A stretch of DNA of 64,000 nt from Planctomycetota bacterium (GTDB lineage Bacteria; Planctomycetota; JAJSAM01). The number at the start of each line of letters is the position of its first letter. Position 1 is the stretch's first letter. Positions 4,156-53,096 of the stretch are shown one piece after another. A program made the position numbers and the translations under genes. The stretch spans positions 47,048-111,047 of the forward strand of contig JAJSAM010000026.1 in the NCBI GenBank assembly GCA_024274785.1. Direction: 5' to 3'. The notes beneath the pieces were generated by a model, which worked only from the letters and a program-made list of their open reading frames with translations, had not been told where the DNA came from and ran no database searches.

Positions 4156-5961
4156 ATGAGCAAGCGTGACACCAGATATGTCTGCCTGAGGATCGCTGGT
4201 GAGGGGGGCGAGGGCGTGATCAGCGCCGGTGAACTGCTCACGCAGGTCGCCGCCCGTCTCGGCATGCACGTGGCGACCTTCAAGACCTTCCCCTCGGAGA
4301 TCCGGGGGGGCATGGCGGTTTACCAGCTTCGCACCGGCCCGGACCGCGTGCTCTCCCAGGGGGACTACCTCGACATCCTGGTCGCCTTCAATCGCGAGGG
4401 CTACGATCGCAACATTGCGGATATGACCTCGGAGGGCGTGCTGGTGCACGACTTCGAACCGGGGGACAACCTTCCGGTGAAGCGGCGTGGCGGCGTGGAC
4501 TACCACGTGCCCATGGGGAAGCTCGCGAGAGAAGCCGGCTCCCACCGCGCGAAGAACATGGTGGCTCTCGGCGCGATCTGTGAGCTCTTCGGTTTTCCGG
4601 TGGAGGGGCTGACCGAAGGAGTTCGCCTGAAGTTCGGGAAGAAGAGCGAGAAGGTCGTCGAGGTCAACCTGAAGGCCATCGATCTCGGTGCGGAATATGT
4701 TCGTGAGAACCACGAGATCCGCCACGAACTGCACTTCAGTGAAGGTGACGGGCATGCGCGGGTCGTGCTCTCCGGGAACGATGCGGTTGCCTTTGGAGCG
4801 GTGGCCGCCGGCTGCCGGTTCTATGCCGGATACCCGATTACCCCGGCCACCGAGATCATGGAATACCTCGCCCGCGAGCTGCCCCGGGTAAGCGGGAGGA
4901 TGGTGCAGGCGGAAGATGAGATCGCCTCGATCGCCATGTGCATCGGAGCTTCCTTTACCGGGCAGAAGTCGATGACCGCCACCTCCGGTCCCGGTCTCGC
5001 CCTGATGAGCGAGGCCCTCGGCCTGGCGTCCATGGCGGAGGTGGGCCTGGTCCTGGTTGACGTGCAGCGCGCCGGTCCCTCCACCGGGATGCCGACCAAG
5101 GCGGAGCAGGGCGATCTGAACCTCGCCATCTACGGCGCCCATTCCACGGCGCACCGGGTGGTCATCGCGCCGGTGGACGTCGAGGACTGCTTCTATCAGA
5201 CGGTGAACGCATTCAACATCGCGGCCAAGTACCAGATTCCGGTGATCGTGTTGTCGGAACAGTCGCTCGGCTTCTCCAAGGCATCGATGCCGCGGCCGGA
5301 CTTTGAAAACCTCGATGTCTTCGAAGAGCAGTACGCCCGCATGCCGACCGATGGGGATCCCTGGCCGAAAGTGGACGAGCTCACGGTGGGTGAAGGCTAT
5401 CCCATGACCCCGGTCTTTCCCCGCTACCTCCGAAACGACACGGGCATTTCCCCGCGTTCGATTCCAGGCATGCCGGGGATGGAGTTTCGGGCGACCGGTC
5501 TGGAACACGACGAGTTCGCCCGGCCCCGCTACGACCCCCCGAACCGAAAGGCCATGCTGAACAAGCGCCAGGCCAAGTTCGAGGAAGTCCGGCGGGAGTA
5601 CGGCGAGCAGGTGGAGGTCATCGGTGATGACGAGGCCGAGGTGGCCATCACCGGGTGGGGTACCACCGCGGCGGTGATCCGGCACGCGGTGACCCGCGCC
5701 CTGAACGATGGCGCTTCGGTCAAGGCCATCTTCCCGAAGATCCTGAGTCCGATGCCGGACATGGCGATGCGCCATCACCTGCACGGTGTCAAGCGCGTGA
5801 TCTGCTGCGAACTGAACGACACCGGTCAGTACGCCAACATCATCCGCCACCGCTACGGCGCCAACGTCCATGCCGTCCTGAAGGACCGCGGCGTTCCGTT
5901 CGCGCCCGGAGAGATCACCCCCTATATCGAGATGGCCATCAAGGCCCAGGTGAGAATATGA
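4156..5961 (+). CDS. korA: 2-oxoacid:ferredoxin oxidoreductase, fused gamma-alpha subunit (KorA-like).
   Basis: A 601-aa protein carrying the conserved alpha-subunit motif AGYPITPATEI and a gamma-like N-terminal domain. The layout matches two-subunit KorAB-type OFORs. An ATGA overlap with the downstream beta subunit indicates translational coupling. Confidence 0.85.
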   Translation: MSKRDTRYVCLRIAGEGGEGVISAGELLTQVAARLGMHVATFKTFPSEIRGGMAVYQLRTGPDRVLSQGDYLDILVAFNREGYDRNIADMTSEGVLVHDFEPGDNLPVKRRGGVDYHVPMGKLAREAGSHRAKNMVALGAICELFGFPVEGLTEGVRLKFGKKSEKVVEVNLKAIDLGAEYVRENHEIRHELHFSEGDGHARVVLSGNDAVAFGAVAAGCRFYAGYPITPATEIMEYLARELPRVSGRMVQAEDEIASIAMCIGASFTGQKSMTATSGPGLALMSEALGLASMAEVGLVLVDVQRAGPSTGMPTKAEQGDLNLAIYGAHSTAHRVVIAPVDVEDCFYQTVNAFNIAAKYQIPVIVLSEQSLGFSKASMPRPDFENLDVFEEQYARMPTDGDPWPKVDELTVGEGYPMTPVFPRYLRNDTGISPRSIPGMPGMEFRATGLEHDEFARPRYDPPNRKAMLNKRQAKFEEVRREYGEQVEVIGDDEAEVAITGWGTTAAVIRHAVTRALNDGASVKAIFPKILSPMPDMAMRHHLHGVKRVICCELNDTGQYANIIRHRYGANVHAVLKDRGVPFAPGEITPYIEMAIKAQVRI

Positions 5962-10195: not shown

Positions 10196-10348
10196 GACCC
10201 GATCGAACGGGCATCAAAATCCCTCACCTCCGTGGGGGATATCGCCCGATCCGTGCTCTCGAGCCCTGTTTCTCCGCGATCCGGGGAATGGTACAGGAGT
10301 TGCCTTGGGGTTCTCCTTGAACGCCATTTTGCGTGGAGATTCCCTGTC

Positions 10349-11230
10349 ATGACCGACTTCCTTGGCACAAACTTCCCGATCCTCGAGGCGGAGGTCATCG
10401 GGGAGGATCTCACCTCCTACTGGATCGCGGCGCCCGACATCGTCCATGCCTACGGCCCCGGTCAGTTCGTCATCATCCGGCTCGATGAGGAGGGTGAGCG
10501 CATCCCGCTGACCATCGTCGACGTCGACCGGGAGCGTGGCGCCTTGCAGCTGATCGTCCAGGCGGTGGGGCGTACGACCGCCCAGATGGCGTTGCTGAAG
10601 GCCGGGGACACCATCCTCGACGTGGTGGGGCCGCTCGGCGAGGCCATCCCGATCGAGAAGAAGGACGATGCTTTCGTGATCGTGGGCGGCGGCGTCGGGA
10701 TCGCTCCGATCTATCCCAAGGCCAAGGCGTTGAAGGATGCCGGCAATCGCGTGATCACGATCATCGGCGCGCGGACGAAGGATCTCCTGATGCTGGTCGA
10801 TGCGATGGAGGCTGTCTCGGACGAGTTTCACCTCATGACCGACGACGGCAGCGCCGGGCGCAAGGGGCTTGTGACTGAGCCGCTCGACGAGGTGCTGGGG
10901 CGTGAAGGCACGGTGGCCGAGGTCATCGCGGTGGGGCCACCGATCATGATGAAGTTCTGCACGCTCACCGCCCTCGAGCATGATGCGCCGGTCCTCGTCT
11001 CCCTGAACCCGATCATGATCGATGGGACGGGAATGTGCGGAGGCTGCCGGGTCTCCCTCGGGGACGAGGTGAAGTTCGCTTGTGTCGATGGCCCCTGTTT
11101 CGACGGGGCGAAGATCGACTGGGAAGAGATGATGACCCGTCTCGGCGCCTACAAGGCCGAGGAAAAAGAAGCGATGGACCACTGGTGCCGGATCCGCGAC
11201 GGCGCGGCGGCCGAAGGGAAGAAGGCATGA
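10349..11230 (+). CDS. nfnA: NfnA / SudB-like flavoprotein electron-transfer subunit (FAD plus a C-terminal 2Fe-2S cluster).
   Basis: PyrK-like fold with the C-terminal cysteine cluster GMCGGCRVSLGDEVKFACVDGPCF. An ATGA overlap joins it to the next gene. Confidence 0.8.
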   Translation: MTDFLGTNFPILEAEVIGEDLTSYWIAAPDIVHAYGPGQFVIIRLDEEGERIPLTIVDVDRERGALQLIVQAVGRTTAQMALLKAGDTILDVVGPLGEAIPIEKKDDAFVIVGGGVGIAPIYPKAKALKDAGNRVITIIGARTKDLLMLVDAMEAVSDEFHLMTDDGSAGRKGLVTEPLDEVLGREGTVAEVIAVGPPIMMKFCTLTALEHDAPVLVSLNPIMIDGTGMCGGCRVSLGDEVKFACVDGPCFDGAKIDWEEMMTRLGAYKAEEKEAMDHWCRIRDGAAAEGKKA

Positions 11231-12765
11231 ACGACGACAAGTTGCCCGACTGCTGCGAGAACGCCGACTGCTGCGGCAATGGTGAGAAGAAAAGGCAGAA
11301 GAAAGAAGTCGAGCTGACCCCTTACGGCCGCATCCGTCGGAAGGGCAAGCGGGAGCGCGTCTCGGTTCCCATGCCGGAGCAGGAGCCGCTCGTTCGCGCG
11401 AAGAACTTCGACGAGGTGCCCCTCGGCTACATGGCCGAGATGGCGATGCAGGAGGCGCAGCGTTGCTTCCAGTGCAAGGGTGAACGCGCCAGGTGCGTAC
11501 CCAACTGTCCGGTCGGGATCAACATCCCCAAGTTCCTCGACGAGGTGGCGGAGGGCGACTTCCAGGCGGCGATCATGACCGTGATGGAGGACAACCTCCT
11601 TCCGGCCATCTGCGGCCGGGTCTGCCCGCAGGAAGAGCAGTGCCAGATGGAGTGCATCGGCGGCAAGCGGGGCGAGCCGGCGATGATCGGCCGTCTCGAG
11701 CGCTTCGTGGCCGACTGGTACGCGGTGCACGGTGAGAAGCCCGAGCCGATGACGCCGCCCGAAGGCGCGCAGAAGGTCGCCGTCGTCGGTTCCGGCCCGT
11801 CCGGCCTGACCGCCGCCGCGGACCTCGCGAAGAAGGGGTACGACGTCACCATCTTCGAGGCGTTGCACCGTCCGGGCGGCGTGCTGGTCTACGGTATTCC
11901 GGAGTTCCGGCTGCCGAAACGGATCATCGATCGCGAGGTGGAGAACATCAAGCTCCTCGGCGTGAAGATCTACCTGAACGCCATGATCGGGAAGCTGTTC
12001 ACCGTCGACACCCTGATGAACGAGAAGGGGTTCGAGGCGGTCTACCTCGGCGTGGGAGCGGGCCTGCCCTACATGATGAACGTTGCCGGAAAGAACCTGA
12101 AGGGCGTCTACACCGCGAACGAGTTCCTCTCGCGCGTGAATCTGATGAAGTCCTACGAGTTCCCGAAGTCGCCGACCCCGCTCAAGGTCGGTGAGAACGT
12201 TGCGGTGGTCGGTGGCGGAAACGTGGCCATGGACAGCGTCCGCACCGCGCTCCGCATCGGTGCTGAGAACGTGCACCTCGTCTACCGCCGCTCCGAGGCC
12301 GAGATGCCGGCCCGGAACGAGGAGATCCACCACGCGAAGGAGGAGGGCGTGCAGTTCCACCTCCTGACCAATCCGGTGGAATTGATCGGTGATGACGATG
12401 GCCACGTTCGGGCCGTCAAGTGTGTCAAGATGGAACTCGGCGAGCCCGACGACTCCGGCCGCCGCCGCCCGGTGGTGATCGAGGGCAGCGAGCACGAGCT
12501 CCTGGCGGACAACTTCGTCTTCGCCATCGGCCAGGGCCCGAACCCGATCCTCCCGGCCACCACACCGGGCCTGAAGACGGACAAGTGGGGCTGCTTCCTG
12601 GTGGACGACAGTCAGATGACCTCGATCCCCGGCGTCTTCGCCGGCGGGGACATCACCGGCGGCGCGACGGTCATCACCGCGATGGGTGACGGCCGGACCG
12701 CGGCGAACGGCATCGACCGGTATCTCACCGCCCGGCGGGAGGAGGCGGAGGCAGTGAGGCAGTGA
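11227..12765 (+). CDS. nfnB: NfnB / SudA / GltD-family NAD(P)H-dependent iron-sulfur flavoprotein (two 4Fe-4S clusters, FAD, NADPH).
   Basis: Cysteine clusters CFQCKGERARCVPNCP and CGRVCPQEEQCQMEC. Dinucleotide folds VAVVGSGPSGLTAAADLAKKG and VAVVGGGNVAMD. Confidence 0.85.
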   Translation: MNDDKLPDCCENADCCGNGEKKRQKKEVELTPYGRIRRKGKRERVSVPMPEQEPLVRAKNFDEVPLGYMAEMAMQEAQRCFQCKGERARCVPNCPVGINIPKFLDEVAEGDFQAAIMTVMEDNLLPAICGRVCPQEEQCQMECIGGKRGEPAMIGRLERFVADWYAVHGEKPEPMTPPEGAQKVAVVGSGPSGLTAAADLAKKGYDVTIFEALHRPGGVLVYGIPEFRLPKRIIDREVENIKLLGVKIYLNAMIGKLFTVDTLMNEKGFEAVYLGVGAGLPYMMNVAGKNLKGVYTANEFLSRVNLMKSYEFPKSPTPLKVGENVAVVGGGNVAMDSVRTALRIGAENVHLVYRRSEAEMPARNEEIHHAKEEGVQFHLLTNPVELIGDDDGHVRAVKCVKMELGEPDDSGRRRPVVIEGSEHELLADNFVFAIGQGPNPILPATTPGLKTDKWGCFLVDDSQMTSIPGVFAGGDITGGATVITAMGDGRTAANGIDRYLTARREEAEAVRQ

Positions 12766-12903
12766 GGGCTCGTCTGGAAATAAGTGCGACCGTTGCACCG
12801 AGAGCGCCGCTGCGCCCGACCCAGCAAGGCGCGAGGAGGGGGCACCTGACTGGTTTCAGCCGACGAGCAACGCAGCTTTGCGTGATGCAGCTGCCCTTCG
12901 AAC
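12766..12903 (-). repeat. Intergenic repeat family 1, copy A. It lacks the left terminal inverted repeat and starts immediately after the nfnB stop codon.
   Basis: The reverse complement aligns almost base-for-base with 20771..20933. The shared core is TTCGAGGGC.GCTGCATC...GTTGCTCGTCGGYTGAAACCAG..AGGT.C.CCCTCCTCG...GGTGCAACGG.CGCAC..ATTTCCAGACGAGCC. Confidence 0.8.
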
Positions 12904-13111
12904 ACACATCCCGGCAGTTGGCGCAACGCCAGCGGCAAACACTCTCCAACTCTCTCTCACTCCGGGGCGGACCCATCGGGCCGCCCGGATCGCACGTCTT
13001 GCTGCCGGTGCCAGTGTCCCGATGCCACCGGACCTCTGCCGTTCGCCCTGCTCCGAGCTGCGCCGGCCGGCCGCGCCGAACGCGCACCGGCCGCCCGGGA
13101 GCCGGCGTCGA

Positions 13112-13360
13112 TCACGCTTCATCCCCGATTTCGTCCTCGGTATTCAGGTAGGCCAGTCCGACGGAGAGGATCGCCGGCAATCGCGAGATCGTCTTCACGA
13201 TGTCGTCCATCGCCTCGGAGGTCTCCGTGTCCATGACCACGACGATGCTGCCTTTCTCGTCGGTGCCATGCACCTCCACCGCCGGGAACGCCGCGATGCC
13301 CTCGAGCGCCGCGGTGAGGTCTTCCGGTGCGCAGGTGATGATGAAGCCGCCGATCGGCAT
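13112..13360 (-). CDS. napD: NapD-like nitrate reductase maturation chaperone.
   Basis: An 82-aa protein immediately downstream of napA. It follows the E. coli NapD pattern (hydrophobic core, VxVxD, ISxLPxxLSVxLxY). Confidence 0.65.
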   Translation of the reverse strand: MPIGGFIITCAPEDLTAALEGIAAFPAVEVHGTDEKGSIVVVMDTETSEAMDDIVKTISRLPAILSVGLAYLNTEDEIGDEA

Positions 13361-13455
13361 GGAATGGCCTCTCGTGGTAGGGAAGAGGGGAGGCGGGGGC
13401 GGGAGAGATCCGCCCCCGGTGGTTCCTGGTCCGCATTTCTCATGAGAAAAGCGGG

Positions 13456-15858
13456 CTAGAGCTGGACGATGACGGGCGAAAGGCGCTTCGGCCCGGAGAC
13501 CCGCCTGATCCGGCAGGCGCAGATCTTGAACTCCGGCTGCTTGGAACCGGGGTCGAACGCATCCACGCAGACCTTGTTCACCATCCGGTCCTCGGCCATG
13601 TCATGCATGTAGGCGAAGATCATGCCCTCCATCGGACCCGACCGGATCCGCGCCGGCATGACGATCTTCCCGCGCCGGGATTCGATCTCCACCATGTCGC
13701 GGTTCCTGATGCCGTAGGCCTTGGCGTCCTTCGGGTTGATCTCGACGAACGAGTAGGGGTTCCCACGGATCAGTTCCGGGATGCGGCCGGTCATCGTGCC
13801 GGTGTGCCAGTGGTCGATGATGCGGCCGGTGGAGAAGTAGATCGGGTAATCGGCGTCCGGCTCCTCCGCCGCACCCTGGAATGGCCGGAGCCACACCCAG
13901 AGTTTCTTGTCCGGGTGAGCCGGTCCGTAGAACTGGTAGGGGAGATCGTTTTCGGAGTGCTCGTCGGCCAGGGGGTCGAAGCCCTTCACGAACTTCATCA
14001 CCGTTCCACCGGTCGCGGCGTGCTCCTTCGTGGGCGCCGGCCACTGCACGCCGTCGTGCATGGTCTTCAGAAGTTCGTAGGTCGCGCCGCGCAGATCGTT
14101 GTCCTGCCCCCTGGTCGCCTTCTGCGAGTACTCGTCCCAGATGGCCTTCGGCAGCGCGTAGTCCGGTTCCTTGCCCTCGAAATCGGCCACGCATTGACGG
14201 ATCATCGGGTCGTTCAGCAGCTTGGCGAGCCGAAGCGCCCACTCCCTGGCGATCCAAACTTCGGGCATCGCTTCACCCGGCGCGTCGATTGCCTTCGGGG
14301 TGAGTTGCGAACGGCGCTCGGTGCAGCCGTAGACCCCCGTCTTCTCGAAGTGGAAGGCCCCGGGCAGGATCAGGTTGGCGCACTCCGTGGTGCGCGTCGG
14401 GAAGATATCGGTGACCACCATGAAGAGGTCGTCGCTCCGCATTCCTTCGCGGTACGGCGTGACGTTCGGGAGGGTCTGCGCGGGGTTCGTGCAGTGGACC
14501 CAGATCGCCTTGATCTTCTTTTCGTTGACCGCCTTGAACATGGCCATGGTGTGCAGGCCGGGCTTCGACGGGAGGCGGCCCCGGGGGAAGCCCCAGATGT
14601 CCTCCATCTGGTTTCGGAGCGGCTCCTTCGCCACGAGACGGTGGCCGGGCAGGATGTGACAGAGTCCACCACCCTCGCGCACGCCGCCGCACGCATTCGG
14701 CTGGCCGGTGAGGGAGAGGCTGTCCGCGCCCTCCTTGCAGAGCTGGCCGGTGATCATGTGGAGGTTGTGGATCAGGTTGTTCGCCCACACGCCCCGGCGC
14801 CGCTGGTTGATGCCCATCGTCCAGCAACTGAGCGTGCCGTTCGACTTCGCGAACCAGCGCGCCGCCTGGCGGATGCTTTTCGCGGTGATGTTCCCGCCGC
14901 AGATCGCCGCCGCCTTCTCCGGCGTGTAGGCCTCGAGGAACTTCCGGTACGAAGAGAGATCGACCTGCTTGCTCTCCTTGCCGATCCGGAACGTGCAGTA
15001 ATTGTTGATGAACTCGTCGTCCTGCAGCCCCTCTTCGAGAATCACCTGGGCCATCGCGTTCAGCATGGCGAGGTCCGTGCCGGGACGGAACTGCATGTGT
15101 GAGTCGGCGATCCGGGAGGTGGCGGACACGCGCGGGTCGGCGTTGATGACCTTCACGAAGTCCGGGTTGTCGAGCTTCCGGCGCATCACCCGGCGGAAGA
15201 ACACCGGGTGGCACTCCGACATATTGCTGCCGATGATGAAGAAGCAGGATGCCTTCTCCACGTTGGCGTAACCGCCGATGGGCTCGTCCGCGCCCATGGA
15301 TGTCACGTATCCTCCGACCGCGCTGGCCATGCAAAGCCGCGGGTTTCCCTCGACGTTGTTCGTCTGAAGGCCGCCGCGCATGATCTTCTGGAAGAGATAG
15401 GTCTCCTCCGTCAGGGCCTGGCCGGACCCGTAGTAGGCCACCGCGTCGTTCCCGTTTGCCTTGATCGCGTCGGCGAACTCCTTCGCCGCGATGTCGAGCG
15501 CCCGATCCCAGGATATCTCCTGGAAGGGCTCACTCTTCTTCGCCCGGTAGAGCGGTCTGGTGAGCCTGTCCGGCTGGTTGCCGATCAGCTTGTGGAAGAG
15601 CATCCCCTTCATGCAGAGGTAGCCCATGCTGGTCCTGGATTTCGGGACGCCGCGGAGCGCGACCGCCTTCCCGTTCTTCACGCCGAGTTCCACGCGGCAC
15701 CCGGTGCCGCAGAGGCGGCAGGTGCCCCTGACCCATTTTTGCGCCTGGCCGGCGGCATGGGCCGTACTCGCGGGAGTCGTGGCCAGGCTCATGCCCACGT
15801 AGGATGCCGCGGTGGCCGCCGCGACCTGCTTCAGGAAGTCACGTCTCGAAACGCCCAT
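13456..15858 (-). CDS. napA: Periplasmic nitrate reductase catalytic subunit NapA (molybdopterin, Tat-exported).
   Basis: The start MGVSRRDFLK carries a Tat motif, with a GAGGAGG Shine-Dalgarno 7 nt upstream. The 4Fe-4S motif is CRLCGTGC. Long blocks match E. coli NapA (NNLIHNLHMITGQ, SLTGQPNACGG, STGRIIDHWHTGTMTGRIPEL). The 880-aa track ORF carries an unsupported upstream extension. Confidence 0.9.
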   Translation of the reverse strand: MGVSRRDFLKQVAAATAASYVGMSLATTPASTAHAAGQAQKWVRGTCRLCGTGCRVELGVKNGKAVALRGVPKSRTSMGYLCMKGMLFHKLIGNQPDRLTRPLYRAKKSEPFQEISWDRALDIAAKEFADAIKANGNDAVAYYGSGQALTEETYLFQKIMRGGLQTNNVEGNPRLCMASAVGGYVTSMGADEPIGGYANVEKASCFFIIGSNMSECHPVFFRRVMRRKLDNPDFVKVINADPRVSATSRIADSHMQFRPGTDLAMLNAMAQVILEEGLQDDEFINNYCTFRIGKESKQVDLSSYRKFLEAYTPEKAAAICGGNITAKSIRQAARWFAKSNGTLSCWTMGINQRRRGVWANNLIHNLHMITGQLCKEGADSLSLTGQPNACGGVREGGGLCHILPGHRLVAKEPLRNQMEDIWGFPRGRLPSKPGLHTMAMFKAVNEKKIKAIWVHCTNPAQTLPNVTPYREGMRSDDLFMVVTDIFPTRTTECANLILPGAFHFEKTGVYGCTERRSQLTPKAIDAPGEAMPEVWIAREWALRLAKLLNDPMIRQCVADFEGKEPDYALPKAIWDEYSQKATRGQDNDLRGATYELLKTMHDGVQWPAPTKEHAATGGTVMKFVKGFDPLADEHSENDLPYQFYGPAHPDKKLWVWLRPFQGAAEEPDADYPIYFSTGRIIDHWHTGTMTGRIPELIRGNPYSFVEINPKDAKAYGIRNRDMVEIESRRGKIVMPARIRSGPMEGMIFAYMHDMAEDRMVNKVCVDAFDPGSKQPEFKICACRIRRVSGPKRLSPVIVQL

Positions 15859-16301
15859 CACTTCGCCTCCTCTCGGTGCCCACGGAAAAGGTGGGGCGCG
15901 TGGCACTCCCAGCACTTTTTCCCCTGCTGCACGCGCGACTTCATCTGCCCCTGGTGGCAGATCGCACAGGTCGTCATCTCCGGGACTTTGCGGAAGTTCT
16001 CGTAGGTGCCGTGGCACTGGAAGCATTTCACGTTGTCGAGCCCGTGCGTGGAGTTGTACCAGTCCTCGTAGATCTGCGGAGTGGCCACCTTGTGGCACGC
16101 CGTGCAGGCGCGGTACACCGCCTCCTCCGGGATCTCCGGGTGGGGTAGAGGCTCGCTGGCGGCGGGAAGCGCCTCCTCCGGCGGGGGAGACGCCTCGGGA
16201 GCGACCGGCTCCGACGGAGAGGCGGATGGTTCGGGCATGGTGCAGGCCAGGATGCCCACGAACAGAATTGTGACCAGGGTCAGCAGGGCGGCGAACTTCA
16301 C
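15858..16301 (-). CDS. Tetraheme c-type cytochrome and probable lipoprotein, the likely electron donor to NapA.
   Basis: Four CxxCH motifs (CTACH, CFQCH, CAICH, CWECH). A GTG start is preceded by GGAAGGGAG. The N-terminal hydrophobic segment ends in ILAC, which resembles a lipobox. The stop overlaps the napA start. Confidence 0.7.
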   Translation of the reverse strand: MKFAALLTLVTILFVGILACTMPEPSASPSEPVAPEASPPPEEALPAASEPLPHPEIPEEAVYRACTACHKVATPQIYEDWYNSTHGLDNVKCFQCHGTYENFRKVPEMTTCAICHQGQMKSRVQQGKKCWECHAPHLFRGHREEAK

Positions 16302-17020
16302 GAAAATCTCCCTTCCGCGGCTGATGATGTGCTGATGCTTGGAGTGAATGTGTGCCGCTATTCTCGCCGTTGGAGCGGTGGAATTCAATTCAGGAAGGAG
16401 CCGGGAGAAGGCTGGCTATCTGGCGATGAGCGCGCGGAAAGCTCTTCGTGCCGCAGGGCTGATCCGACTGATCGCGAGGAAGGCCCGGCGACCGTCGGCG
16501 CGTTTCAGTACAGTGCTCAAACTGCCCGCGGCAGGAGGCGAATCCCGACGTTCGATCCGCTCCACGCATTCAGCGTGGAACATGGGCAGGAGGCGGCGGA
16601 TCGACTGGGCATCCACTGATTCTCCGGCGCATCGGCCGAAGGCATGGACGGCGCTCTGGAAGGCCTCGCGTGCAAGGGGGGCGGTCAATCCGTGCCGGAA
16701 TCCGGCGATCGTGACCAGCTTCCGCTGAATCTGCTCGAAGGCGATGGGCTCTGTTGAACCGGAAATGGCGACCGCTCCTTCCCGAGGCTGCGGGGTCCGC
16801 GCAGGAAGCCCGCATGGTATCGGGACTTCACTTGAGCAAGGACCATGCCGGGGAGTGGTTGCGGGGGAGTGGTCTGTCTGAAGTGATTTGTAGGTAAGGG
16901 ATTGTGTCGTCTGTTCGGTTCAGCGGGGCTGCGCACCGGGTGGACGGGCTGCATCGCCGGTTCAGAATTCTGGACGGAGAGGCTACGGGAAGCCCCCATC
17001 CTCACGGGGCACGCGGGCCC

Positions 17021-17614
17021 TCAGATGCAGATGCCCCTGGCCTTCAGGATGCCGCGGAGCTCCAGGCGGGCCGAGCGGATTCGGGAGTCGAGGGTATTCG
17101 CCTTGAGCTTCAGGCGTTTCATCAGACCGTGGCGGCCGACATCTTCCTCGATGAGCAGTTCGAAGAGTTCTCGCGCCTGAGGCTTCAATTCCTGCAGGGC
17201 TTCGACGATCCGGGTTCCGTCCTCGCGGCGGATGACCTGATCGATGACCGGCCGTGCCGTGCCGCCGCGCTCGGGTTTGAATGGCGACTCATCGATCTTT
17301 GTACTCTCTTCTGCGATTCGTTTGAGTCGATGAGTTGTCTTGATGGACTGATCAATGAACTCCAGGCACTTCTTCTTGAAGATCCCGATCAGGATGCCCA
17401 TCTGGTTCGTCTCGTTCCGGTAGCGGTGTCCGTGCTCGCAATACGCCGCAAGTGCTGTTTGGGCAATGTCTTCCGCATCACACTCTCGTATGCGGTACTT
17501 GAAGCCCGCAATGAGAATGAGGCGGCGACGCACCTCTTCGAACTTCGCTGGATTGCCGAGTTCCTCAAGCATGACCTTGTCTTCTAAGCCCTTTCCCGCC
17601 GCTTCAGCGGACAA
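17021..17614 (-). CDS. ECF-type RNA polymerase sigma factor.
   Basis: The layout is that of sigma-70 region 2 and region 4, and the length is 180-197 aa. An alternative start lies at 17572 (MLEELG). Confidence 0.7.
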   Translation of the reverse strand: MSAEAAGKGLEDKVMLEELGNPAKFEEVRRRLILIAGFKYRIRECDAEDIAQTALAAYCEHGHRYRNETNQMGILIGIFKKKCLEFIDQSIKTTHRLKRIAEESTKIDESPFKPERGGTARPVIDQVIRREDGTRIVEALQELKPQARELFELLIEEDVGRHGLMKRLKLKANTLDSRIRSARLELRGILKARGICI

Positions 17615-17741
17615 CTCGCCCCCGTGTCAGGTTGCAGGCTTGTTCCCCCTACAGAACGTTGCCCCTCGTACGTCAGACTCTCCCTTTTAATCCTCGGACC
17701 GCCCGATGTCAATCCTCGTCGTCCAGAGCTTTTTGCATCCC

Positions 17742-18287
17742 TCAGCCGTACGGGTCCGCCGCGGGCAGTTCGCCGCGGGTTCGCGAGGGGTGGTGGTACC
17801 GGCCCCGGAAGAAGAGCAGGGGCCAGAGTTCGCCCTCGAGGTCGTGGAGTTCCGTCACCTCTCCCACCACGATCCAGTGGTCGCCGCCGTCGTGCATCCG
17901 GTGGACTCGGCAAGCCATCGCGCCGATGCAGTCCGCCAGGCGTGGCGCCAGACTTTCGTCTTCCCAACGGGTGAGCGCGTACGGCTCACCCCCATCGCTT
18001 CCGAGCCCGTTGTCGCGGGTTTTCGCGAAGTGGTTGGAGACCGCTTCCTGGTGATCACCGAGGATGCTGATCGTGAATGCAACGCCTTCTTCCATGAGCT
18101 GGGCAAATCGTGACTTCTTGGAAGGACAGACGATGAGCAGGGTCGGGTCGAGCGAAAGGGAGCTGACCGCGTTGGCGGTCATCCCTCGCAACTCCCCGTC
18201 TTTTTCGGCGAGCAACACCGTCACGCCGGTGGCGAACAGGCCGATCGTCTGGCGGTAGCGCGCATGAAGCTCCTGGGAGTCGGTCAT
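17742..18287 (-). CDS. Flavin reductase-like, FMN-binding split-barrel protein.
   Basis: The start MTDSQELHARYRQ has an AAGGAG motif 6 nt upstream. The sequence matches the flavin reductase family (GLFATGVTVLL...MTANAVSSLSLDP...). Confidence 0.7.
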   Translation of the reverse strand: MTDSQELHARYRQTIGLFATGVTVLLAEKDGELRGMTANAVSSLSLDPTLLIVCPSKKSRFAQLMEEGVAFTISILGDHQEAVSNHFAKTRDNGLGSDGGEPYALTRWEDESLAPRLADCIGAMACRVHRMHDGGDHWIVVGEVTELHDLEGELWPLLFFRGRYHHPSRTRGELPAADPYG

Positions 18288-18591
18288 CTCGGTCTCCTTC
18301 CCGCCCATCGTACGGGCTCGCGTGAAAGAGCTCGCGAATCCTTCCATTGTCGATTCCGCCGGGTACATTCGCACCGACTCATCGGAGCGGAGAGTGCATG
18401 CCGAAGATCCGTGAAGACGCTCCCGAGCGTATCGACAAGGTCCGGAAGAACCGCTGAACCGGGGGATGAGAGGTGACCGTCGCGCACGAACACGCCGGGA
18501 AGAATGCGAAGCGATACCTCGAGGATCTATTCGAGTTCCTGCGGTGACCGACCGGGAGCGCCCCGCGACGCGGGCCGGGGTCCGGGCCTAC

Positions 18592-18790
18592 GGGTTTCAC
18601 TGGCCGGACCGGGATGTCCTGCTGCTGTGCGGCGGCGGCAGCATTCCCGTGGTGGCGAACATGAAGGACCTGCCCGGCCTGCCCGTGGTGCTGAATGGCT
18701 TCGGGCTCCCGGGCTGTGGGGCGCACGGTCCCGACGAAAACCTGCCGATTGTGATGTACGAGCGCCCATCGACACGTTCATCCAGTTCAT
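18592..18790 (+). pseudogene. Remnant of the C-terminal roughly 70 aa of an M20-family metallopeptidase (ArgE/DapE-like).
   Basis: The translation ...IPVVANMKDLPGLPVVLNGFGLPGCGAHGPDENLPIVMYE matches the conserved M20 C-terminal block (VxLGPG...AHxPDE). There is no room upstream for the missing roughly 300 aa. Confidence 0.4.
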
Positions 18791-18808
18791 GCGCGAGAGG
18801 GCGGGTCG

Positions 18809-20002
18809 ATGAGTGACCGCCGAAGTTCCGGAACACCGGAAGCTCCATCTGATCGGGCGAGGTTCTTCTTCGGGGGGCTGGTGGCGGCCTGGTTCATCGG
18901 CCTGTGCCTGATCCCCGATCCGCGACCGCTTGGGGCGCCGGAGTGGGCGGTGGGCCTGCTGCGCAAGGTGGCCGGGCTGTCCGAACCGATCGCGAGAGCC
19001 GGGGCCACCATCGCGCTGCGCGGGCTCGGTCTGGCGTTGATCGGCGTGTTGCTGTCGCTGACCTTCCGGCGCTTCCCCCTGAAAGTCGCCGCGCCGGTGG
19101 TACTCGTGGCGTCTCCGATCCTGGCCGTGGCCGCGCAGTGGATCAACTACGGATACTTCCCGATCCCGATGCAGCTTCAGCTTGGTCTGGCGGCCGCTGT
19201 CCCGGGAGCGCTGCTCGGGCTGAGTCTGCGCAGGAGCCGCCTGGCCCTGGCGGCGCTCGTCGTCGTTGCGATCGGTCTCTTCTCCTTTGGAACGGCGACC
19301 GGGATACCCGACGATCTCCACGAGGCTGCGCGCGCGACGGCGCGCTACGTGCTGGAGAACGCGGATGACGTCCCGAAGGGGGATGCCGGGTTCGCCCGCC
19401 TGCTTCACCTGACTTTCACCTACGCCGAGGACAACTCCCACCAGACGGGCGCCGTCTTCGCCAACCGCGCAGCCATCCTGGCTCTCGGGGTCATCCTCGG
19501 CGAGGAGTTGGTTGTTCGCGTGGCGAAGCGGCGCCTGGACTCTTCGAAGCTGGAGACGGCCAACAGCCTCGCGGGCGCCCGGAAGCTGCGGAGGAGGATC
19601 AGGCTGCGGGGCCGCGGAGACCTTTCGCAGCACTTCTGGGTCAGTGCTTCGCTGGCGGTGCTCTCCGACGACTCCCGGTCGATGACCGTGGGCATCACCA
19701 AGGAGATGATGGACGCCATTCCGGGTGGATCCGGCTTCTCCTTCTCGGACCTGGTCGCGGACCGTGCGGGGACGCTGTTTACGGTGGCCGCGACGCGGGA
19801 TGAGGAGTCGGCGCGGGCTATGCAGGCCCGGATCCGGAATGGGGTGGTAATCGATCAGTACTGCCCGAACGTGGAGGAGCTCCCGGACGGCATCCCGCGC
19901 GACGAGTTTCAGCAGGAATATGGTGGCCTGGGTGGGGTTCGGACGAAGAAGATCGTGGCCGAGATCCGGAAGCGTCTCGCCACCTGTGAAGCCCTGAAGT
20001 AG
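18809..20002 (+). CDS. Hypothetical membrane protein with an N-terminal multi-transmembrane region and a C-terminal soluble domain.
   Basis: A 397-aa protein with several hydrophobic helices in the first 170 aa and good codon bias. The minus ORF 18527..20056 is an antisense shadow. Confidence 0.6.
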   Translation: MSDRRSSGTPEAPSDRARFFFGGLVAAWFIGLCLIPDPRPLGAPEWAVGLLRKVAGLSEPIARAGATIALRGLGLALIGVLLSLTFRRFPLKVAAPVVLVASPILAVAAQWINYGYFPIPMQLQLGLAAAVPGALLGLSLRRSRLALAALVVVAIGLFSFGTATGIPDDLHEAARATARYVLENADDVPKGDAGFARLLHLTFTYAEDNSHQTGAVFANRAAILALGVILGEELVVRVAKRRLDSSKLETANSLAGARKLRRRIRLRGRGDLSQHFWVSASLAVLSDDSRSMTVGITKEMMDAIPGGSGFSFSDLVADRAGTLFTVAATRDEESARAMQARIRNGVVIDQYCPNVEELPDGIPRDEFQQEYGGLGGVRTKKIVAEIRKRLATCEALK

Positions 20003-20770: not shown

Positions 20771-20933
20771 GGGCCCGTCTGGAAATAACTGCTGCATTCG
20801 AGGGCCGCTGCATCCCGCTACGCTTTGTTGCTCGTCGGTTGAAACCAGCAAGGTTGCGCCCTCCTCGAGCCTCGTTTCTCGGGCGCCGCGGCGCTCTCGG
20901 TGCAACGGGCGCACAAATTTTCCAGACGAGCCC
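20771..20933 (+). repeat. Intergenic repeat family 1, copy B. Full length with 15-bp terminal inverted repeats GGGCYCGTCTGGAAA.
   Basis: The left end is GGGCCCGTCTGGAAATAA and the right end TTTTCCAGACGAGCCC. The core is shared with copies A, C and D. Confidence 0.8.
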
Positions 20934-27792: not shown

Positions 27793-27946
27793 GGGCCGCG
27801 CAAGAATAACTACGGGGTTCGAGGGCGGCTGCATCCCCTTGAGCCGCGTTGCTCGTCTGTTGAAACCAGTGAGGTTGCGCCCTCCTCGCGCCTTGCCGGG
27901 CGGGCGCATCAGCGCTCTCCGTCCTGCGAAGATATTCTTGCGCAGC
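27793..27946 (+). repeat. Intergenic repeat family 1, copy C. The core is conserved, but the terminal inverted repeats differ from copy B (GCGCAAGAATA ... TATTCTTGCGC).
   Basis: The core TTCGAGGGCGGCTGCATCCC...GTTGCTCGTCTGTTGAAACCAGTGAGGTTGCGCCCTCCTCG aligns with copies A, B and D. Confidence 0.8.
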
Positions 27947-33407: not shown

Positions 33408-33923
33408 TCAGCGCGTGGCCGCGGCCATCTCTTCGATCATGCTGTTGACCGGCAGGCCGTCGATCCGGTAGCCGCCGTCTTCCGTCAGCAGGTCGTAGGA
33501 ACGCTCCACACCACGATGCCGGGTCGATCGAACGACGATCCGTCCGGCAATCGCATCGCCGGGGTGGAGGTCGGCGGCGCGGATGCCGTCGATCCGGTGC
33601 AGGTTGCTCAGCGTCACCCGCTCGCCGGTGGCGAACTCGACCATCAGGTATTCCGAGGTAGCCGGGTCCTCGACGTACTCGTGCTTCTGAAGGATCCGCA
33701 CCGGTTCGCCGGAGAGTCCGATCACCAGATCTCCGGCGCGAAGGGTCTCCAGGGGGAGGGACCCCGAAGGAGTATCCACCAGGGCGCCCTCGGGGATACA
33801 GCCGAACTTGAGTTTCACCGAGGCTGCCTGGATCCCGAGGTTGAGCAGACCGCAGCCGGAGAGCAGAACGGTGGCGGCCACCAGGCCAAGCAGCGCCAGA
33901 TGCCGTGAAGTTCTGTTCTCCAT
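33408..33923 (-). CDS. Hint-domain (Hedgehog/intein-like) lipoprotein.
   Basis: The start MENRTSRHLALLGLVAATVLLSGC is a lipobox, with an AGGAGG Shine-Dalgarno. The Hint N-terminal block is CIPEGALVDTPSGSLPLETLRAGDLVIG. The C-terminal block is YDLLTEDGGYRIDGLPVNS. Confidence 0.65.
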   Translation of the reverse strand: MENRTSRHLALLGLVAATVLLSGCGLLNLGIQAASVKLKFGCIPEGALVDTPSGSLPLETLRAGDLVIGLSGEPVRILQKHEYVEDPATSEYLMVEFATGERVTLSNLHRIDGIRAADLHPGDAIAGRIVVRSTRHRGVERSYDLLTEDGGYRIDGLPVNSMIEEMAAATR

Positions 33924-34028
33924 GGTGCCCTCCTGGCGCGGAAAAGCGCCGAGTCGAACCGACAATCTTACCTGCTTGTACCTGTTCTCATCGGCAATCC
34001 CGGGGTGAAAGAGCGGTATCCGCCGCCG

Positions 34029-35245
34029 AAAAGGATACGGAGGCAGACACCTTTCACCAACCTACGTTGAATCGTACTCAAGCAATCTGAGCGGAATTCC
34101 GTGCCCGTTGCTCCCTTTGTGCGACTTCCTTCCTGGAGGTCACCATGTCCAGACGAAGCCGCGAGGACGGACCGGATACTTTGCACCATGTCTACAACCG
34201 GGGCATTGCCCGGCGAACGGTATTCGAGAACAGGGACGACGTGCGCTACTTCCTTTCGCGACTGGCGCGGGTCCACCGCAAGGGCCTGCTGGAAATCCAC
34301 GGGTTCAGCTTCCTCACCACTCACTACCACCTGATCGTCCGAAGCCCCGTCGGCAAGCTCCCTCGGGCGATGCAGGAAACCAGCAACGCGTTCGTTCGTT
34401 GGTTCAATCGCAAGCGAAGGAGGGACGGAGCGCTCTTTCGCGGCAGGTTCGGCTCGCGACGCGTCCAGTCTCAGGCCTACCTCACCCGCCTCGTACCCTA
34501 TGTGGACCAGAACAGCACCGGTGCCAGGCTGGCAAGCCATGCCGGACTCTACCCGTACGGAAGTGCGCGGCTGTTCCAGCAGGGGCAGAGTCCGAAGTGG
34601 CATACGCGGGAGCTGATCGAGAGGCTCGCCTGCCAGATGTCCGGTTTCCGGGAATTCAGCCCATCGGTGTACCGCACCTGCTTTGGAGCCGAGCTGACTC
34701 CGGCCGAAGCCGAGTGGCTCAAGCTACGCATCCGTTGCCCGCGCGATGGCCCGGATCCGCTGGATGACCTGGTCGGGGCTGCGCCCGAGCGCGTACGGGA
34801 GTGGATGGTTCGCAAGGCGAGCCTGGCGGACGGCACCAGACCTGGTCTCCCTCTGCTGGCACCTTCAATCGCGATGGAAGTCCTGCGGGAAGGGCAACTG
34901 CGGGAACCGGATCTGCAGTTTCGGCTTCGGAGGTATTGGCGTCCCGCCTGGCTCCTATTGGCGGCCGGCTTCCTTCGAGACGAGTGCGGCTTGACCATCG
35001 CAGCTGCGGCCAGGTTCTTGAACCGACCGGCTTCCAGTGTCTCGGTCTTGGCAAATGCACACCGGGAACTGCTCATCGCCGACCCGACCTATGCTGCGCT
35101 CGCAGCGGAGTTCCTGGCGGAGGCGCTCTGGCGCCTGCACGGCTCGGCGACGGCCGGGATTCGCGCGGACGGATCCGAACGCAGGTGAGATTGCTCCGGG
35201 GCGGATGAACGTAGGTTGGTGAAAGGTGTCTGCCTCCGTATTTCC
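34029..35245 (+). mobile_element. REP-associated tyrosine transposase (RAYT / IS200-like) unit bounded by 36-bp perfect inverted repeats.
   Basis: The left repeat at 34032..34070 is ATACGGAGGCAGACACCTTTCACCAACCTACGTT. The right repeat at 35207..35243 is its reverse complement. The left flank also folds as CGGTATCC-N11-GGATACGG. Confidence 0.7.
34145..35188 (+). CDS. HUH-superfamily tyrosine transposase of the RAYT / IS200 TnpA-like type.
   Basis: The N-terminus carries HVYNRG. The HUH motif is TTHYHLIV. The C-terminal region after the catalytic domain is extended, giving 347 aa. Confidence 0.75.
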   Translation: MSRRSREDGPDTLHHVYNRGIARRTVFENRDDVRYFLSRLARVHRKGLLEIHGFSFLTTHYHLIVRSPVGKLPRAMQETSNAFVRWFNRKRRRDGALFRGRFGSRRVQSQAYLTRLVPYVDQNSTGARLASHAGLYPYGSARLFQQGQSPKWHTRELIERLACQMSGFREFSPSVYRTCFGAELTPAEAEWLKLRIRCPRDGPDPLDDLVGAAPERVREWMVRKASLADGTRPGLPLLAPSIAMEVLREGQLREPDLQFRLRRYWRPAWLLLAAGFLRDECGLTIAAAARFLNRPASSVSVLANAHRELLIADPTYAALAAEFLAEALWRLHGSATAGIRADGSERR

Positions 35246-35282
35246 CGAGTACACTCCGAACTCACCGTCACAGCGCGACCCA

Positions 35283-35390
35283 GCCGCAATGGAGGGGCGA
35301 CCTCCGGGCGACCGTGCTGGCGGTCCGGGAGCGTCACGCAGAATCTGCGAGCGCCGCGAAGATTCTGAACGTCAGTACTGCAGGGAGACG
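35283..35390 (+). repeat. Intergenic repeat family 2, copy 1, immediately upstream of the OmpW-like gene.
   Basis: About 90% identical to 59399..59502 (GCCGCAATGGAGGGNCGACCTCCGGGCGAC.GTGCTGG.GGTCCGGGAGCG.CACGC.GAATCTGCG.GCGCCGCGAAG.TT..GAACGTCAGTACT). Confidence 0.75.
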
Positions 35391-35393
35391 ATC

Positions 35394-35930
35394 ATGAAGC
35401 GATTGGCCATCCTCGCCGTGGTGTTCGGTCTTGCCGCCTGCTCCGTCACGCCGAGCGAGTTTTCACGTTCCGGTCTCTATGCCGGGGCTTCCGTGATCGG
35501 TGCCGCTTCGGACTTCGACAACATTTCTGTCGTGGACGATCTCGACAAGGTCGACTACACCGCGGGCATCGGCCTCCGCGGCGGATACCGGTTCCTGGAT
35601 CGTTTTGCCATCGAAGCCGCTTACGAGGGGGGGATGGACTGGCGGAAGCACGACGTCAGGATGCAGACCATCGCCCTCCAGGGGAAGGTCTACCCGCTCA
35701 CCGGCGCGGTCCAGCCGTATGGTCTGATCGGCGGTGGCTACGCTTCGGGGAAGGTCTCGGGTACCAACCTGGATGACCGTGCCGCATTCTGGCGCCTCGG
35801 TGCCGGCCTCGAGGTCTACATCCTTCCGTTCCTGCCGCTGTTCTTCGAACTGGACTATACGTTGCCGACCGGCGACCTCTCCGATCTGCCGTACGCCACC
35901 GGCCATCTCGGAGCGCTGTTCCGCTTCTGA
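35394..35930 (+). CDS. Small outer-membrane beta-barrel protein (OmpW/OmpA-like), probable lipoprotein.
   Basis: The start MKRLAILAVVFGLAACS has a GGGAG Shine-Dalgarno. The sequence shows alternating hydrophobic beta-strand patterning and a C-terminal aromatic residue (LFRF). Confidence 0.65.
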   Translation: MKRLAILAVVFGLAACSVTPSEFSRSGLYAGASVIGAASDFDNISVVDDLDKVDYTAGIGLRGGYRFLDRFAIEAAYEGGMDWRKHDVRMQTIALQGKVYPLTGAVQPYGLIGGGYASGKVSGTNLDDRAAFWRLGAGLEVYILPFLPLFFELDYTLPTGDLSDLPYATGHLGALFRF

Positions 35931-37608: not shown

Positions 37609-37854
37609 GGAAGCCTCCGGGGTGGTGACCTGGGGGCCCATTCTTGCCCCGAAACGGCCCGGTTTCGAGGGTATTCCTGGCATAATTCGGACACTTATGT
37701 CAAGATTAGCTTCGATACCGAGAGAGCCTGGCCCGCAGCGGGCCGAAAAAGTTGGTTGCCGGAAGTGGCCCCCACTAGGATGTTCGCTTCACCCCCGGCG
37801 ACCGGATCTCCCTGCTTGCAGTCCGGTCCCTAACCACCAATGAGGACGGCTCTT

Positions 37855-38238
37855 ATGGGTGCAGAGCTAAACGACTATCTACCTGTCCTCCTCACGATTC
37901 TCATCGCGGGAGGCCTTGCCGGCGCGTTCATCGTCCTTTCGGCGGTGATCGGCAAGAGGGCGAGGAATGCCAGTCCCCGTCGCGACACCCCCTACGAGTG
38001 CGGCATGCCCATCATCACCGATGCGCATTCCCGCTTCTCGGTGAAGTTCTACCTCGTGGCGATGCTGTTCATCCTGTTCGACATCGAGGTGGTCTTCCTT
38101 TACCCCTGGGCGGTGGTCTTCGACGACCTGCCGGCGACCCTGATCTTCACGGAGATGGCCGTATTCATCGTCATCCTGCTCGCGGGATGGCTCTTCATGG
38201 TGAAGAAAGGAGTCCTCCGATGGGAGAAGGCGGAGTGA
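37855..38238 (+). CDS. nuoA: NADH-quinone oxidoreductase subunit A.
   Basis: LNDYLPVLL...YECG...FLYPW motifs. An alternative ATG lies at 37840. Confidence 0.85.
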
Positions 38239-38759
38239 CGAAGACGACGATCAAGGACGTGAGCGTTTCCGGGCCGGCCCAGGAGGGCGGGTTCATCATG
38301 ACGACCGTGGATGCGGTGATCAACTGGGGCCGCAAGAACTCCATCTGGCCGTTGCCGATGGGGCTCTCCTGCTGCGCCATCGAGTTCATGGCCACCGCAT
38401 CCTCCCGGTTCGACATGGCGCGGTTCGGCGCTGAAGTCGCGCGCTTTTCCCCCCGCCAGGCCGACCTCATGCTGGTGGCCGGAACGATGACCTACAAGAT
38501 GTCCGGCGCGGTGAAGCTGCTCTGGGAGCAGATGGCCGAGCCGAAGTGGTGTATCTCGATGGGCGCCTGTGCCAGCACCGGCGGCATGTTCCGGTCGTAC
38601 CCGGTGGTGCAGGGGATCGACCAGATCCTGCCCGTGGACTTCTACATCCCCGGCTGCCCGCCTCGGCCGGAGATGGTGCTGAATACCCTGATGCAGTTGC
38701 AGAAGAAGATCTCGAGGGAGCAGCCCCACCTGGACTCGCTGCCCCTGTTTTCGAAGTAG
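38220..38759 (+). CDS. nuoB: NADH-quinone oxidoreductase subunit B.
   Basis: Motifs GLSCCAIE and GACASTGG, then CPPRPE. The start has an AAAGGAG Shine-Dalgarno. Confidence 0.9.
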
Positions 38760-38814
38760 ACCGGTTGACCGGGCGGGAAGGGCGAGTCGGGACGAACCTG
38801 GTGACGAGGAATCG

Positions 38815-39348: not shown

Positions 39349-39370
39349 GGACGCGAGCGAGGAGCAGGAA

Positions 39371-40618: not shown

Positions 40619-40651
40619 CGGATCAAGACTTTCTCATTGAGGGCGATTGAG

Positions 40652-42426: not shown

Positions 42427-42448
42427 GTGCCGATCGCGGAGTGAACAT

Positions 42449-44017: not shown

Positions 44018-44038
44018 AGTCTAAAGGGACACTGACTT

Positions 44039-45088: not shown

Positions 45089-45089
45089 T

Positions 45090-45629: not shown

Positions 45630-45715
45630 ACGCGGTGCTCCCGGTGCGGAACCGGGCTCCGCGGGAACATCAGTGGCAGTAAGGGCAAGGACCGGCCGCC
45701 TATTGCGGCCAACCA

Positions 45716-46300: not shown

Positions 46301-46306
46301 GGGGCC

Positions 46307-46615: not shown

Positions 46616-46621
46616 ACCGCA

Positions 46622-48628: not shown

Positions 48629-48637
48629 GAGAGAGCG

Positions 48638-52936: not shown

Positions 52937-53096
52937 GACGGGATTGTATGGAGGAAGTCCCTCGCACCTAGCAAAAGGTTCCCGAATGATCGTTTGACCG
53001 GTCGAGGATTCGATTCTCGTTTGGCAGCCCGGCCATCCGGCCCTACAATCCCTCCATGGGCGAGCAAACACCTCCCACTGACAGCGGGGCAAAGGC

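Follow-up and report, generated by a model that had tools for sequence, protein, structure and literature searches.

A napM-napA-napD locus of an uncultured planctomycete as a probable deletion derivative of a napMADGH operon

NapM is the tetrahaem cytochrome encoded in the napMADGH and napCMADGH operons, which lack NapB and are found in Deferribacterales, Calditrichota and Thermodesulfobacteriota (PMC5317091, PMC5276818, PMC6896113, PMC5701242); according to a 2026 review, its role is not clear (PMC13223375). Here we describe a periplasmic nitrate reductase (nap) locus with napM, napA and napD as its intact nap genes, located in a 64-kb stretch of the Planctomycetota contig JAJSAM010000026.1 (hereafter the window, meaning the whole stretch; all coordinates are positions in it, and all statements of presence and absence refer to these 64 kb, the part of the genome that is visible). 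The napCMADGH operon was reportedly described by Marietou et al. in 2005 in Desulfovibrio desulfuricans ATCC 27774, and the routes proposed in the literature lead electrons either from NapC or NapGH to NapM and on to NapA, or from NapGH to NapA directly. We estimate at roughly 60% the probability that the window locus represents a napMADGH-type operon of an uncultured member of the Planctomycetota that lost napG and the greater part of napH through an old internal deletion and retained napM-napA-napD.

Remnants of napG and napH after napD

A tblastn survey of genomes and metagenomes yielded 33 operon loci, 30 of which (about 28 distinct) include sequence downstream of napA. In all 30 the gene order is napM-napA-napD-napG-napH: the NapM homolog is encoded directly 5' of a napA gene for a protein of ~800 aa; napD, a poly-ferredoxin gene (napG) and a gene for a Fer4_5 membrane protein (napH) come next. 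The same order is seen in L058, which represents a further lineage, and the window is the sole exception among the loci surveyed. A metagenome scan with a single protein returned no loci, and a metagenome profile scan returned only loci of the Thermodesulfobacteriota type, all of them already known; a full-text literature search, which did retrieve napMADGH and napCMADGH, found no operon limited to napMAD. The closest relatives of the window locus are two metagenome contigs, L032 (JGI 3300033151) and L033 (GCA_029935835.1), with 87% identity to the window in NapA, 73-75% in NapD and 73% in NapM. Their layout is flavin reductase - napM - napA - napD - napG (193 aa) - napH (260 aa), the L032 contig ending within napH.

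The 346 bp 3' of napD, which were overlooked in the initial annotation of the window, are not empty: a search with NapG and NapH of L032 and L033 revealed remnants of both genes (Table 1). The start codon of the napG remnant overlaps the end of napD, as it does in the relatives, and is followed by 19 codons (MKRDRRRLPGGRCAFGAAG) that align with MKPDRRSFLGGLAALGLAG in the NapG proteins of L033 and L032; all four Fe-S cluster domains are gone. The napH remnant lies in a different frame from the napG remnant and is detected by tblastn with an E value of 4.8e-12 and 52% identity. The deletion spans the region from about codon 20 of napG to about codon 191 of napH, ~1.1 kb in total, with the junction at about 13066-13072. 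Because remnants of both genes follow napD, the locus appears to descend from napMADGH and, as far as can be judged from the sequence, is a deletion derivative of this known operon type; the layout, called minimal in the initial annotation, would then be not a design but the product of a deletion that left a visible scar.

The deletion seems to be old. In the napH remnant, other residues have taken the place of four of the eight Fe-S cysteines, all of which are kept in nine functional NapH proteins, some of them from another phylum. The remnant shares 48-51% identity with NapH of the close relative, which is about the level at which NapH from another phylum matches that relative (45-53%). When an outgroup is included, 19 substitutions in the remnant are unique to the window and a single one is unique to the relative (chi2 16.2). 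At the nucleotide level, the remnant is 62% identical to the relative, and this divergence of 38% is comparable to that of the neighboring genes at synonymous sites, which places the deletion early on the window branch.

One copy of a ~140-nt intergenic repeat, which is GC-rich, borders on the napH remnant and overlaps its 3' end. This copy is located ~170 nt from the deletion junction and, accordingly, not at the breakpoint, so we reject a repeat-mediated origin of the deletion. Further copies occupy 20775-20925 and 27796-27922, a partial copy lies at 59291-59337, and the four copies have a mean column identity of 69% when aligned; they occur in both orientations, always at gene ends, and resemble repetitive extragenic palindromes (REP) or miniature inverted-repeat transposable elements (MITE). 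A second repeat pair (35279-35382 and 59395-59498) is 89% identical. A 65-nt inverted repeat (34035-34099 and 35177-35241; 80% complementary) flanks ~1.1 kb and may delimit a small mobile element; its neighbors are an open reading frame (ORF) with a Hint domain at 33408-33965 and, at 35226-35930, a gene for an outer-membrane beta-barrel protein.

Among the surveyed loci, those of Thermodesulfobacteriota (L001-L030) show several features of their own: several carry a gene for an Alginate_exp-type outer-membrane porin directly 5' of napM, most have a pair consisting of an NrfH-like gene and a multihaem gene of ~450 aa a few kb away, and in many, napA and napD are separated by a gap of 750-1000 bp that probably contains an extra gene.

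The proteins encoded by the locus

The nap genes lie on the minus strand, exactly where the initial annotation had placed them, and its description of a tetrahaem cytochrome with a lipobox, napA and napD, free of napB, napC and napGH, holds for intact genes: no intact napB, napC, napG or napH was found in the window. The napM gene has a GTG start preceded at 6 nt by the ribosome-binding site GGAAGGGAG and overlaps napA by 1 nt, as originally noticed (TGATG; base 15858 is shared, and napA begins at the A of the TGA stop codon of napM), whereas napD starts 95 nt past the end of napA. napM is the sole ORF in the window with any CxxCH motif.

The N-terminus of NapM (MKFAALLTLVTILFVGILAC) consists of K2, a hydrophobic stretch (residues 3-18) and the sequence G-I-L-A-C, with Cys20 in the lipobox position. 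This arrangement satisfies the PROSITE-type rule, which was applied as a pattern, by eye (a positively charged N-region, then a hydrophobic core, then [LVI][ASTVI][GAS]C); in agreement with the lipidation originally suggested from the ILAC motif, NapM is very probably a lipoprotein. The next 33 residues (21-53) form a linker consisting nearly exclusively of Pro (11), Glu (6), Ala (6) and Ser (5), and the haem domain proper comprises the remaining 94 residues (54-147) with all four CxxCH motifs (C66/C69/H70, C93/C96/H97, C112/C115/H116 and C130/C133/H134). A search of 5.8 billion proteins produced 22 relatives of NapM, in the alignment of which four additional histidines (H54, H86, H137 and H142) are invariant. 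This is the number needed for bis-His ligation of four haems, hence we infer such ligation. The lipobox cysteine is kept in 18 of the 22 aligned family members, and when 1.84 billion cluster representatives were searched with a profile, 107 NapM clusters were identified at E <= 1e-10, with named proteins from Deferribacterales and Calditrichota among the matches.

Comparison with cytochrome families bears out the original statement that the protein neither has the two-haem layout of NapB nor belongs to the NapC/NrfH type. There is no NapB match in Pfam or NCBIfam (and four haem motifs against two in NapB), no Pfam match to Cytochrom_NNT (PF03264) at E <= 0.01, and only 18 bits against the cut-off of 134 for the NrfH model TIGR03153; moreover, the N-terminal segment ends in the lipobox cysteine and not in a membrane anchor as in NapC/NrfH. 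The match to class III cytochrome c3 (PF02085) is marginal (23.5 bits, cut-off 22.9) and covers a part of the model only, and the scores with the c7 and c3_2 models are below the cut-offs. An AlphaFold2 model built from the 22-sequence alignment (predicted local distance difference test score 60, predicted TM score 0.26) is too poor for fold comparison. Among solved structures, the only similarity is a remote but significant one, relating the NapM family to the haem module at the N-terminus of anammox octahaem proteins similar to hydroxylamine oxidoreductase (HAO) and of hydrazine dehydrogenase: the haem domain of NapM (15858-16140) matches 4N4J over ~73 residues with E values of 3e-6 to 5e-6, and 6H5L and 6HIF are matched as well; no similarity of the family to NapB or NapC/NrfH was detected in this comparison. 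By its operon position, and because the family includes members from phyla in which NapM has been named, the cytochrome is assigned to the NapM family. Thus, the cytochrome itself and its lipobox, being common across the family, would be family traits rather than peculiarities of the window locus, and what had been taken for an unconventional electron carrier to NapA is predicted to be the already described NapM.

The identities originally given for NapA and NapD are confirmed. NapA carries an N-terminal signal for twin-arginine translocation (Tat), MGVSRRDFLKQVAAATAASYVGMSLATTPASTAHA, with the motif SRRDFLK, and matches the Pfam domains Molybdop_Fe4S4, Molybdopterin and Molydop_binding. Its best solved relative is the monomeric NapA of D. 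desulfuricans (2NAP/2JIO; 759 bits over residues 38-786), compared to 438-496 bits for the structures of heterodimeric NapA. In the alignment to 2JIO/2NAP, both the cysteine motif of the [4Fe-4S] cluster (CRLCGTGC...LC) and the Mo-ligand cysteine (Cys140 of the D. desulfuricans protein), which lies within NPRLCMASAVGG, are conserved. Given that the D. desulfuricans protein is the best solved relative by far and that the ligands are kept, NapA appears to be of the small, Desulfovibrio type. The scores with the NCBIfam NapA equivalogs are below the cut-offs (647 against 904 for NF010055 and 598 against 931 for TIGR01706), but these remain the best-scoring NCBIfam families, ahead of the formate dehydrogenase alpha subunit (476 bits); the models are apparently tuned to the larger heterodimeric NapA. 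Altogether, NapA is a predicted nitrate reductase of the 'monomeric' Desulfovibrio type, a putative Tat-exported enzyme with a [4Fe-4S] cluster and a molybdenum-bis(pyranopterin guanine dinucleotide) cofactor (Mo-bisPGD). NapD, encoded next to napA, matches PF03927 with 73.3 bits (cut-off 28, E 1.7e-20), shares 74% identity with its counterpart in L033, and is the predicted chaperone of NapA.

Table 1. Features of the nap locus and of other genes in the window
Feature	Position	Strand	Basis or remark
napM, 147-aa tetrahaem cytochrome c, predicted lipoprotein	15858..16301	-	four CxxCH, family alignment, gene position
napA, predicted periplasmic nitrate reductase catalytic subunit, 800 aa	13456..15858	-	Pfam domains, similarity to D. 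desulfuricans NapA, Tat signal
napD, predicted NapA-specific Tat chaperone, 82 aa	13112..13360	-	Pfam NapD
napG remnant, start codon and 19 codons, degraded Tat signal	13066..13122	-	alignment with NapG of L033 and L032
napH remnant, last ~62 codons (residues ~192-253 of 260)	12887..13072	-	tblastn
copy of ~140-nt intergenic repeat	12770..12905		at 3' end of napH remnant, overlapping it
psi-sig2, decayed paralog of a sigma-like gene	16416..16916	-	tblastn against L061
intact divergent ECF-type sigma factor gene, 183-aa form	17021..17575	-	NCBIfam ECF matches below cut-off
sulfite-oxidase/YedY-type molybdoenzyme gene (Oxidored_molyb)	52370-53131	-	no haem c motif
2-oxoacid:ferredoxin oxidoreductase subunit gene	4156-5961	+	no haem c motif
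long nuo (complex I) operon	37840-51800	+	no haem c motif; >20 kb from nap

Retention of napMAD and the source of electrons

The three retained genes are all open, and all cofactor ligands are intact. The ratios of nonsynonymous to synonymous substitution rates (dN/dS) between the window and L032 are 0.14 for napA, 0.24 for napM and 0.32 for napD. Relative-rate tests give 42 window-unique and 28 relative-unique changes in the 800 aa of NapA (chi2 2.8, not significant), 7 against 5 in NapM and 7 against 6 in NapD, with no significant acceleration. On the window branch, NapA has changed at 0.053 per site compared to 0.31 for the napH remnant, that is, about six-fold more slowly. When the evolution of napA was simulated under neutrality (500 simulations per rate), the frame remained open in 0 of 500 cases at all rates of at least 0.1 substitutions per site, with an average of 6.9 premature stops at 0.1. 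The dN/dS values, the rate tests and the simulations, set against the decayed napH, imply that napMAD was under purifying selection long after the loss of napGH, a conclusion drawn from one pairwise comparison.

Upstream of napM, homology with L032 ends 17 nt before the start codon, and only the ribosome-binding site GCGGAAGGGAG is shared. The 151 bp that separate napM from the flavin reductase gene in L032 are replaced in the window by a 1.4-kb block (16319-17740) that contains an intact gene for a sigma factor of the extracytoplasmic function (ECF) type and psi-sig2. Homologs of the intact gene are 67-87% identical. psi-sig2 is similar to the second sigma-like gene of L061 (tblastn E 2.5e-12, 32% identity) but shows internal gaps, lacks region 4 and a proper start, and has a low GC content at third codon positions; this decayed gene accounts for the 'low-coding' DNA directly 5' of napM. 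In L061 and L062, the pair of sigma genes is found not with nap but in an exosortase/exopolysaccharide (EPS) locus, beside genes for a NusG-like protein, exosortase EpsH/EpsI and a glycosyltransferase. We therefore find no support for the adjacent ECF-type sigma factor as a regulator of nap.

The low-coding segment (16389-17020) had been suggested to hold nap regulation; instead, it is occupied by the decayed sigma-like pseudogene, and neither a promoter-like site nor an Rfam element was found. Specifically, no Rfam family, including the molybdenum cofactor (Moco) riboswitch, was detected near nap at the gathering score or at E <= 1; the search for FNR-type sites 5' of napM and for an FNR/CRP-type palindrome near nap gave no hits; and a scan that does not cover planctomycete promoters found no sigma-70-like promoter near nap. 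The only terminator-like site is located inside the sigma gene.

Several observations weigh against an operon that was maintained after an old deletion, and most of them favor a different account, in which the loss of napGH ended the electron supply and napMAD is nonfunctional, with disabling mutations not yet acquired. The region is eroding: within ~6 kb there are three decay events, namely the napGH deletion, psi-sig2 and the truncated M20 peptidase gene beside the flavin reductase gene (18398-18816, plus strand), which has lost ~325 internal codons compared to L032, so that, of 465 residues, ~1-39 and ~364-450 alone can be recognized, with 72% identity in the C-terminal piece. The ancestral leader and promoter of napM are gone, the upstream region being replaced up to the ribosome-binding site, and the scans detected no promoter-like site. 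The excess of window-specific changes in NapA is 1.5-fold, albeit non-significant, and is compatible with a recent loss of function. Furthermore, napGH is missing from no other NapM locus, an indication that NapGH is normally required. The eroding neighborhood keeps this alternative in consideration, but we regard it as unlikely. The napH remnant is about as diverged as synonymous sites, with the 19:1 asymmetry and the loss of half of its cysteine ligands, and the deletion accordingly is old; over such a time, a neutral 2.4-kb napA would have gained many stops, whereas napA, napM and napD are open, evolve with dN/dS of 0.14-0.32 and keep every cofactor ligand.

The remaining points against a maintained deletion derivative concern sampling and biochemistry. 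With 64 kb visible, a second napGH, napC/nrfH or a complete nap operon could be encoded elsewhere in the genome; the lineage is sampled once, by one contig of a metagenome-assembled genome (MAG), and the deletion junction is seen at the level of the assembly; and we know of no organism in which electron transfer from NapM to NapA has been demonstrated biochemically. The same circumstances (a metagenome-assembled contig, a lineage that is a single contig in the protein collection, a junction known from the assembly) would be expected if the absence of napGH were an artefact of assembly or binning, such that a collapsed or chimeric contig conceals an intact napMADGH in the real genome. This we consider very improbable: collapse would join conserved fragments, but the two remnants show 58% and 51% amino acid identity against 73-87% for the intact nap genes, Fe-S cysteines are lost in the napH remnant, and the repeat copy lies away from the junction.

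The synonymous divergence of napM, napA and napD (0.56-0.75) is about half that of the flanks (1.1-1.2) and likewise counts against a maintained deletion derivative, as the block may have a history of its own. Relative to the L032/L033 lineage, the higher value applies to the genes for the flavin reductase and a 395-aa membrane protein (17742-20002) and to the napG and napH remnants. blastn homology to the relative begins exactly at the napM ribosome-binding site and stops near the napD stop codon. The lower synonymous divergence of napMAD could reflect either stronger codon bias or replacement of the block by recombination at a later time.

If the locus is a functional deletion derivative, NapD would escort apo-NapA to Tat export, and NapM would leave the cytoplasm via Sec, receive its lipid at Cys20 and stay at the periplasmic face on a membrane tether of ~33 flexible residues. 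Its four haems would be closely packed and bis-His ligated through the four extra invariant histidines. NapM would dock on NapA near the [4Fe-4S] cluster, serving as the direct donor in place of NapB, and electrons would flow from the NapM haems via the [4Fe-4S] cluster of NapA to Mo-bisPGD, where nitrate is converted to nitrite. Because NapGH is gone and NapC is not encoded in the window, NapM would have to be reduced in trans, by a donor encoded outside the window. Candidate donors are a NapC/NrfH/CymA-type protein, alternative complex III (ACIII), a bc-type complex or a network of periplasmic cytochromes fed by hydrogenase or formate dehydrogenase; for Caldithrix, which has no NapC, reduction by other donors has likewise been considered (PMC5317091). 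Since the ancestral leader of napM survives in its ribosome-binding site alone, transcription probably depends on sequences in or upstream of the sigma-gene block. We tentatively suggest, with less than even confidence, that the locus is a natural napGH knockout in which NapM-NapA-NapD have long been under selection, with NapM, not NapGH, as the indispensable donor and with electrons coming from a non-Nap quinol:cytochrome c oxidoreductase or from a periplasmic cytochrome pool. If so, napMAD would constitute a plug-in Nap module without a dedicated quinol dehydrogenase.

Apart from nap, the window has no genes of nitrate or nitrite respiration. No nitrite reductase or second c-type cytochrome is encoded, no NrfD-, Rieske- or ACIII-like genes are detectable by motif, and the sole ORF with two [4Fe-4S] motifs is a part of the nuo operon. 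The NuoF protein shares 74-76% identity with Planctomycetota MAG proteins and 87% with one further relative; the organism most likely is an uncultured planctomycete. The initial annotation had invoked the NfnAB/complex I context as a supply of quinol. The nfnAB genes (10232-12765), the Pfam domains of which are recognizable, are convergent to nap, and in L033 a different gene is located 3' of napH. NfnAB is a cytoplasmic NAD(P)H/ferredoxin transhydrogenase and is not quinone-linked. On the grounds of orientation, distance and enzyme class, a link of NfnAB or complex I to nap is rejected. The alternative that the locus has always been a minimal, self-contained Nap system, functionally coupled to NfnAB and complex I and equipped with a new lipoprotein cytochrome, is scarcely credible, even though the window has no intact napB, napC, napG or napH and the cytochrome is neither NapB nor NapC/NrfH, given the apparent membership of the cytochrome in the NapM family, where the lipobox is common, the descent from napMADGH attested by the napG and napH remnants, and the position and nature of nfnAB and nuo. 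Of the original proposal, an electron route to NapA that involves neither NapC nor NapGH survives as an inference; the novel carrier and the coupling do not.

Comparison with known Nap systems

The window and the contigs L032 and L033 share the flavin reductase - napM - napA - napD synteny; in the latter, in contrast to the window, napG, napH and the M20 peptidase gene are intact, and the 1.4-kb sigma-gene insertion is absent. The described napMADGH operons of Thermosulfurimonas dismutans (TDIS_0603-0599), Deferribacter autotrophicus and Caldithrix abyssi resemble the window in the order napM-napA-napD, the small tetrahaem NapM, the small-type NapA and the absence of both NapB and NapC (PMC5276818, PMC6896113, PMC5317091). 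The window differs from these operons in that napG and napH are present as remnants only, the host is a planctomycete, and the upstream region is an unrelated block of sigma genes.

The napCMADGH operon of D. desulfuricans ATCC 27774 is similar with respect to NapA (759 bits, ligands kept) and to the tetrahaem cytochrome gene that directly precedes napA and replaces NapB, but the window lacks napC, its napG and napH are not intact, and its NapM is likened to Ddes_0615 by operon position, not by sequence. The proteobacterial NapAB/NapC systems (napEDABC, napFDAGHBC) share with the window the catalytic chemistry, Tat export and the NapD chaperone, whereas the dihaem NapB and the membrane tetrahaem NapC have no counterpart in the window, and its NapA falls short of the respective family model (647 against the cut-off of 904 bits). 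The likeness between NapM and the HAO-like octahaem protein kustc1061 (PDB 4N4J) is confined to the N-terminal haem module; the match is remote and involves a part of a 500-aa catalytic protein, and NapM has no haem P460 and shows no sign of a common function.

The significance of the locus is limited, being that of one uncultured genome fragment from which the in-trans donor cannot be identified and which represents no new kind of system. Nevertheless, the locus offers a lesson for annotation: what looks like a minimal operon may have arisen by deletion, and short scars beside its last gene betray this. The retention of napMAD after an old loss of NapGH lends modest comparative support to the view that NapM is the essential partner of the monomeric-type NapA, with NapGH replaceable. 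Compared to the known systems, all three proteins and the parent operon type have already been described; the novelty lies in a derivative without napGH that seems to be maintained.

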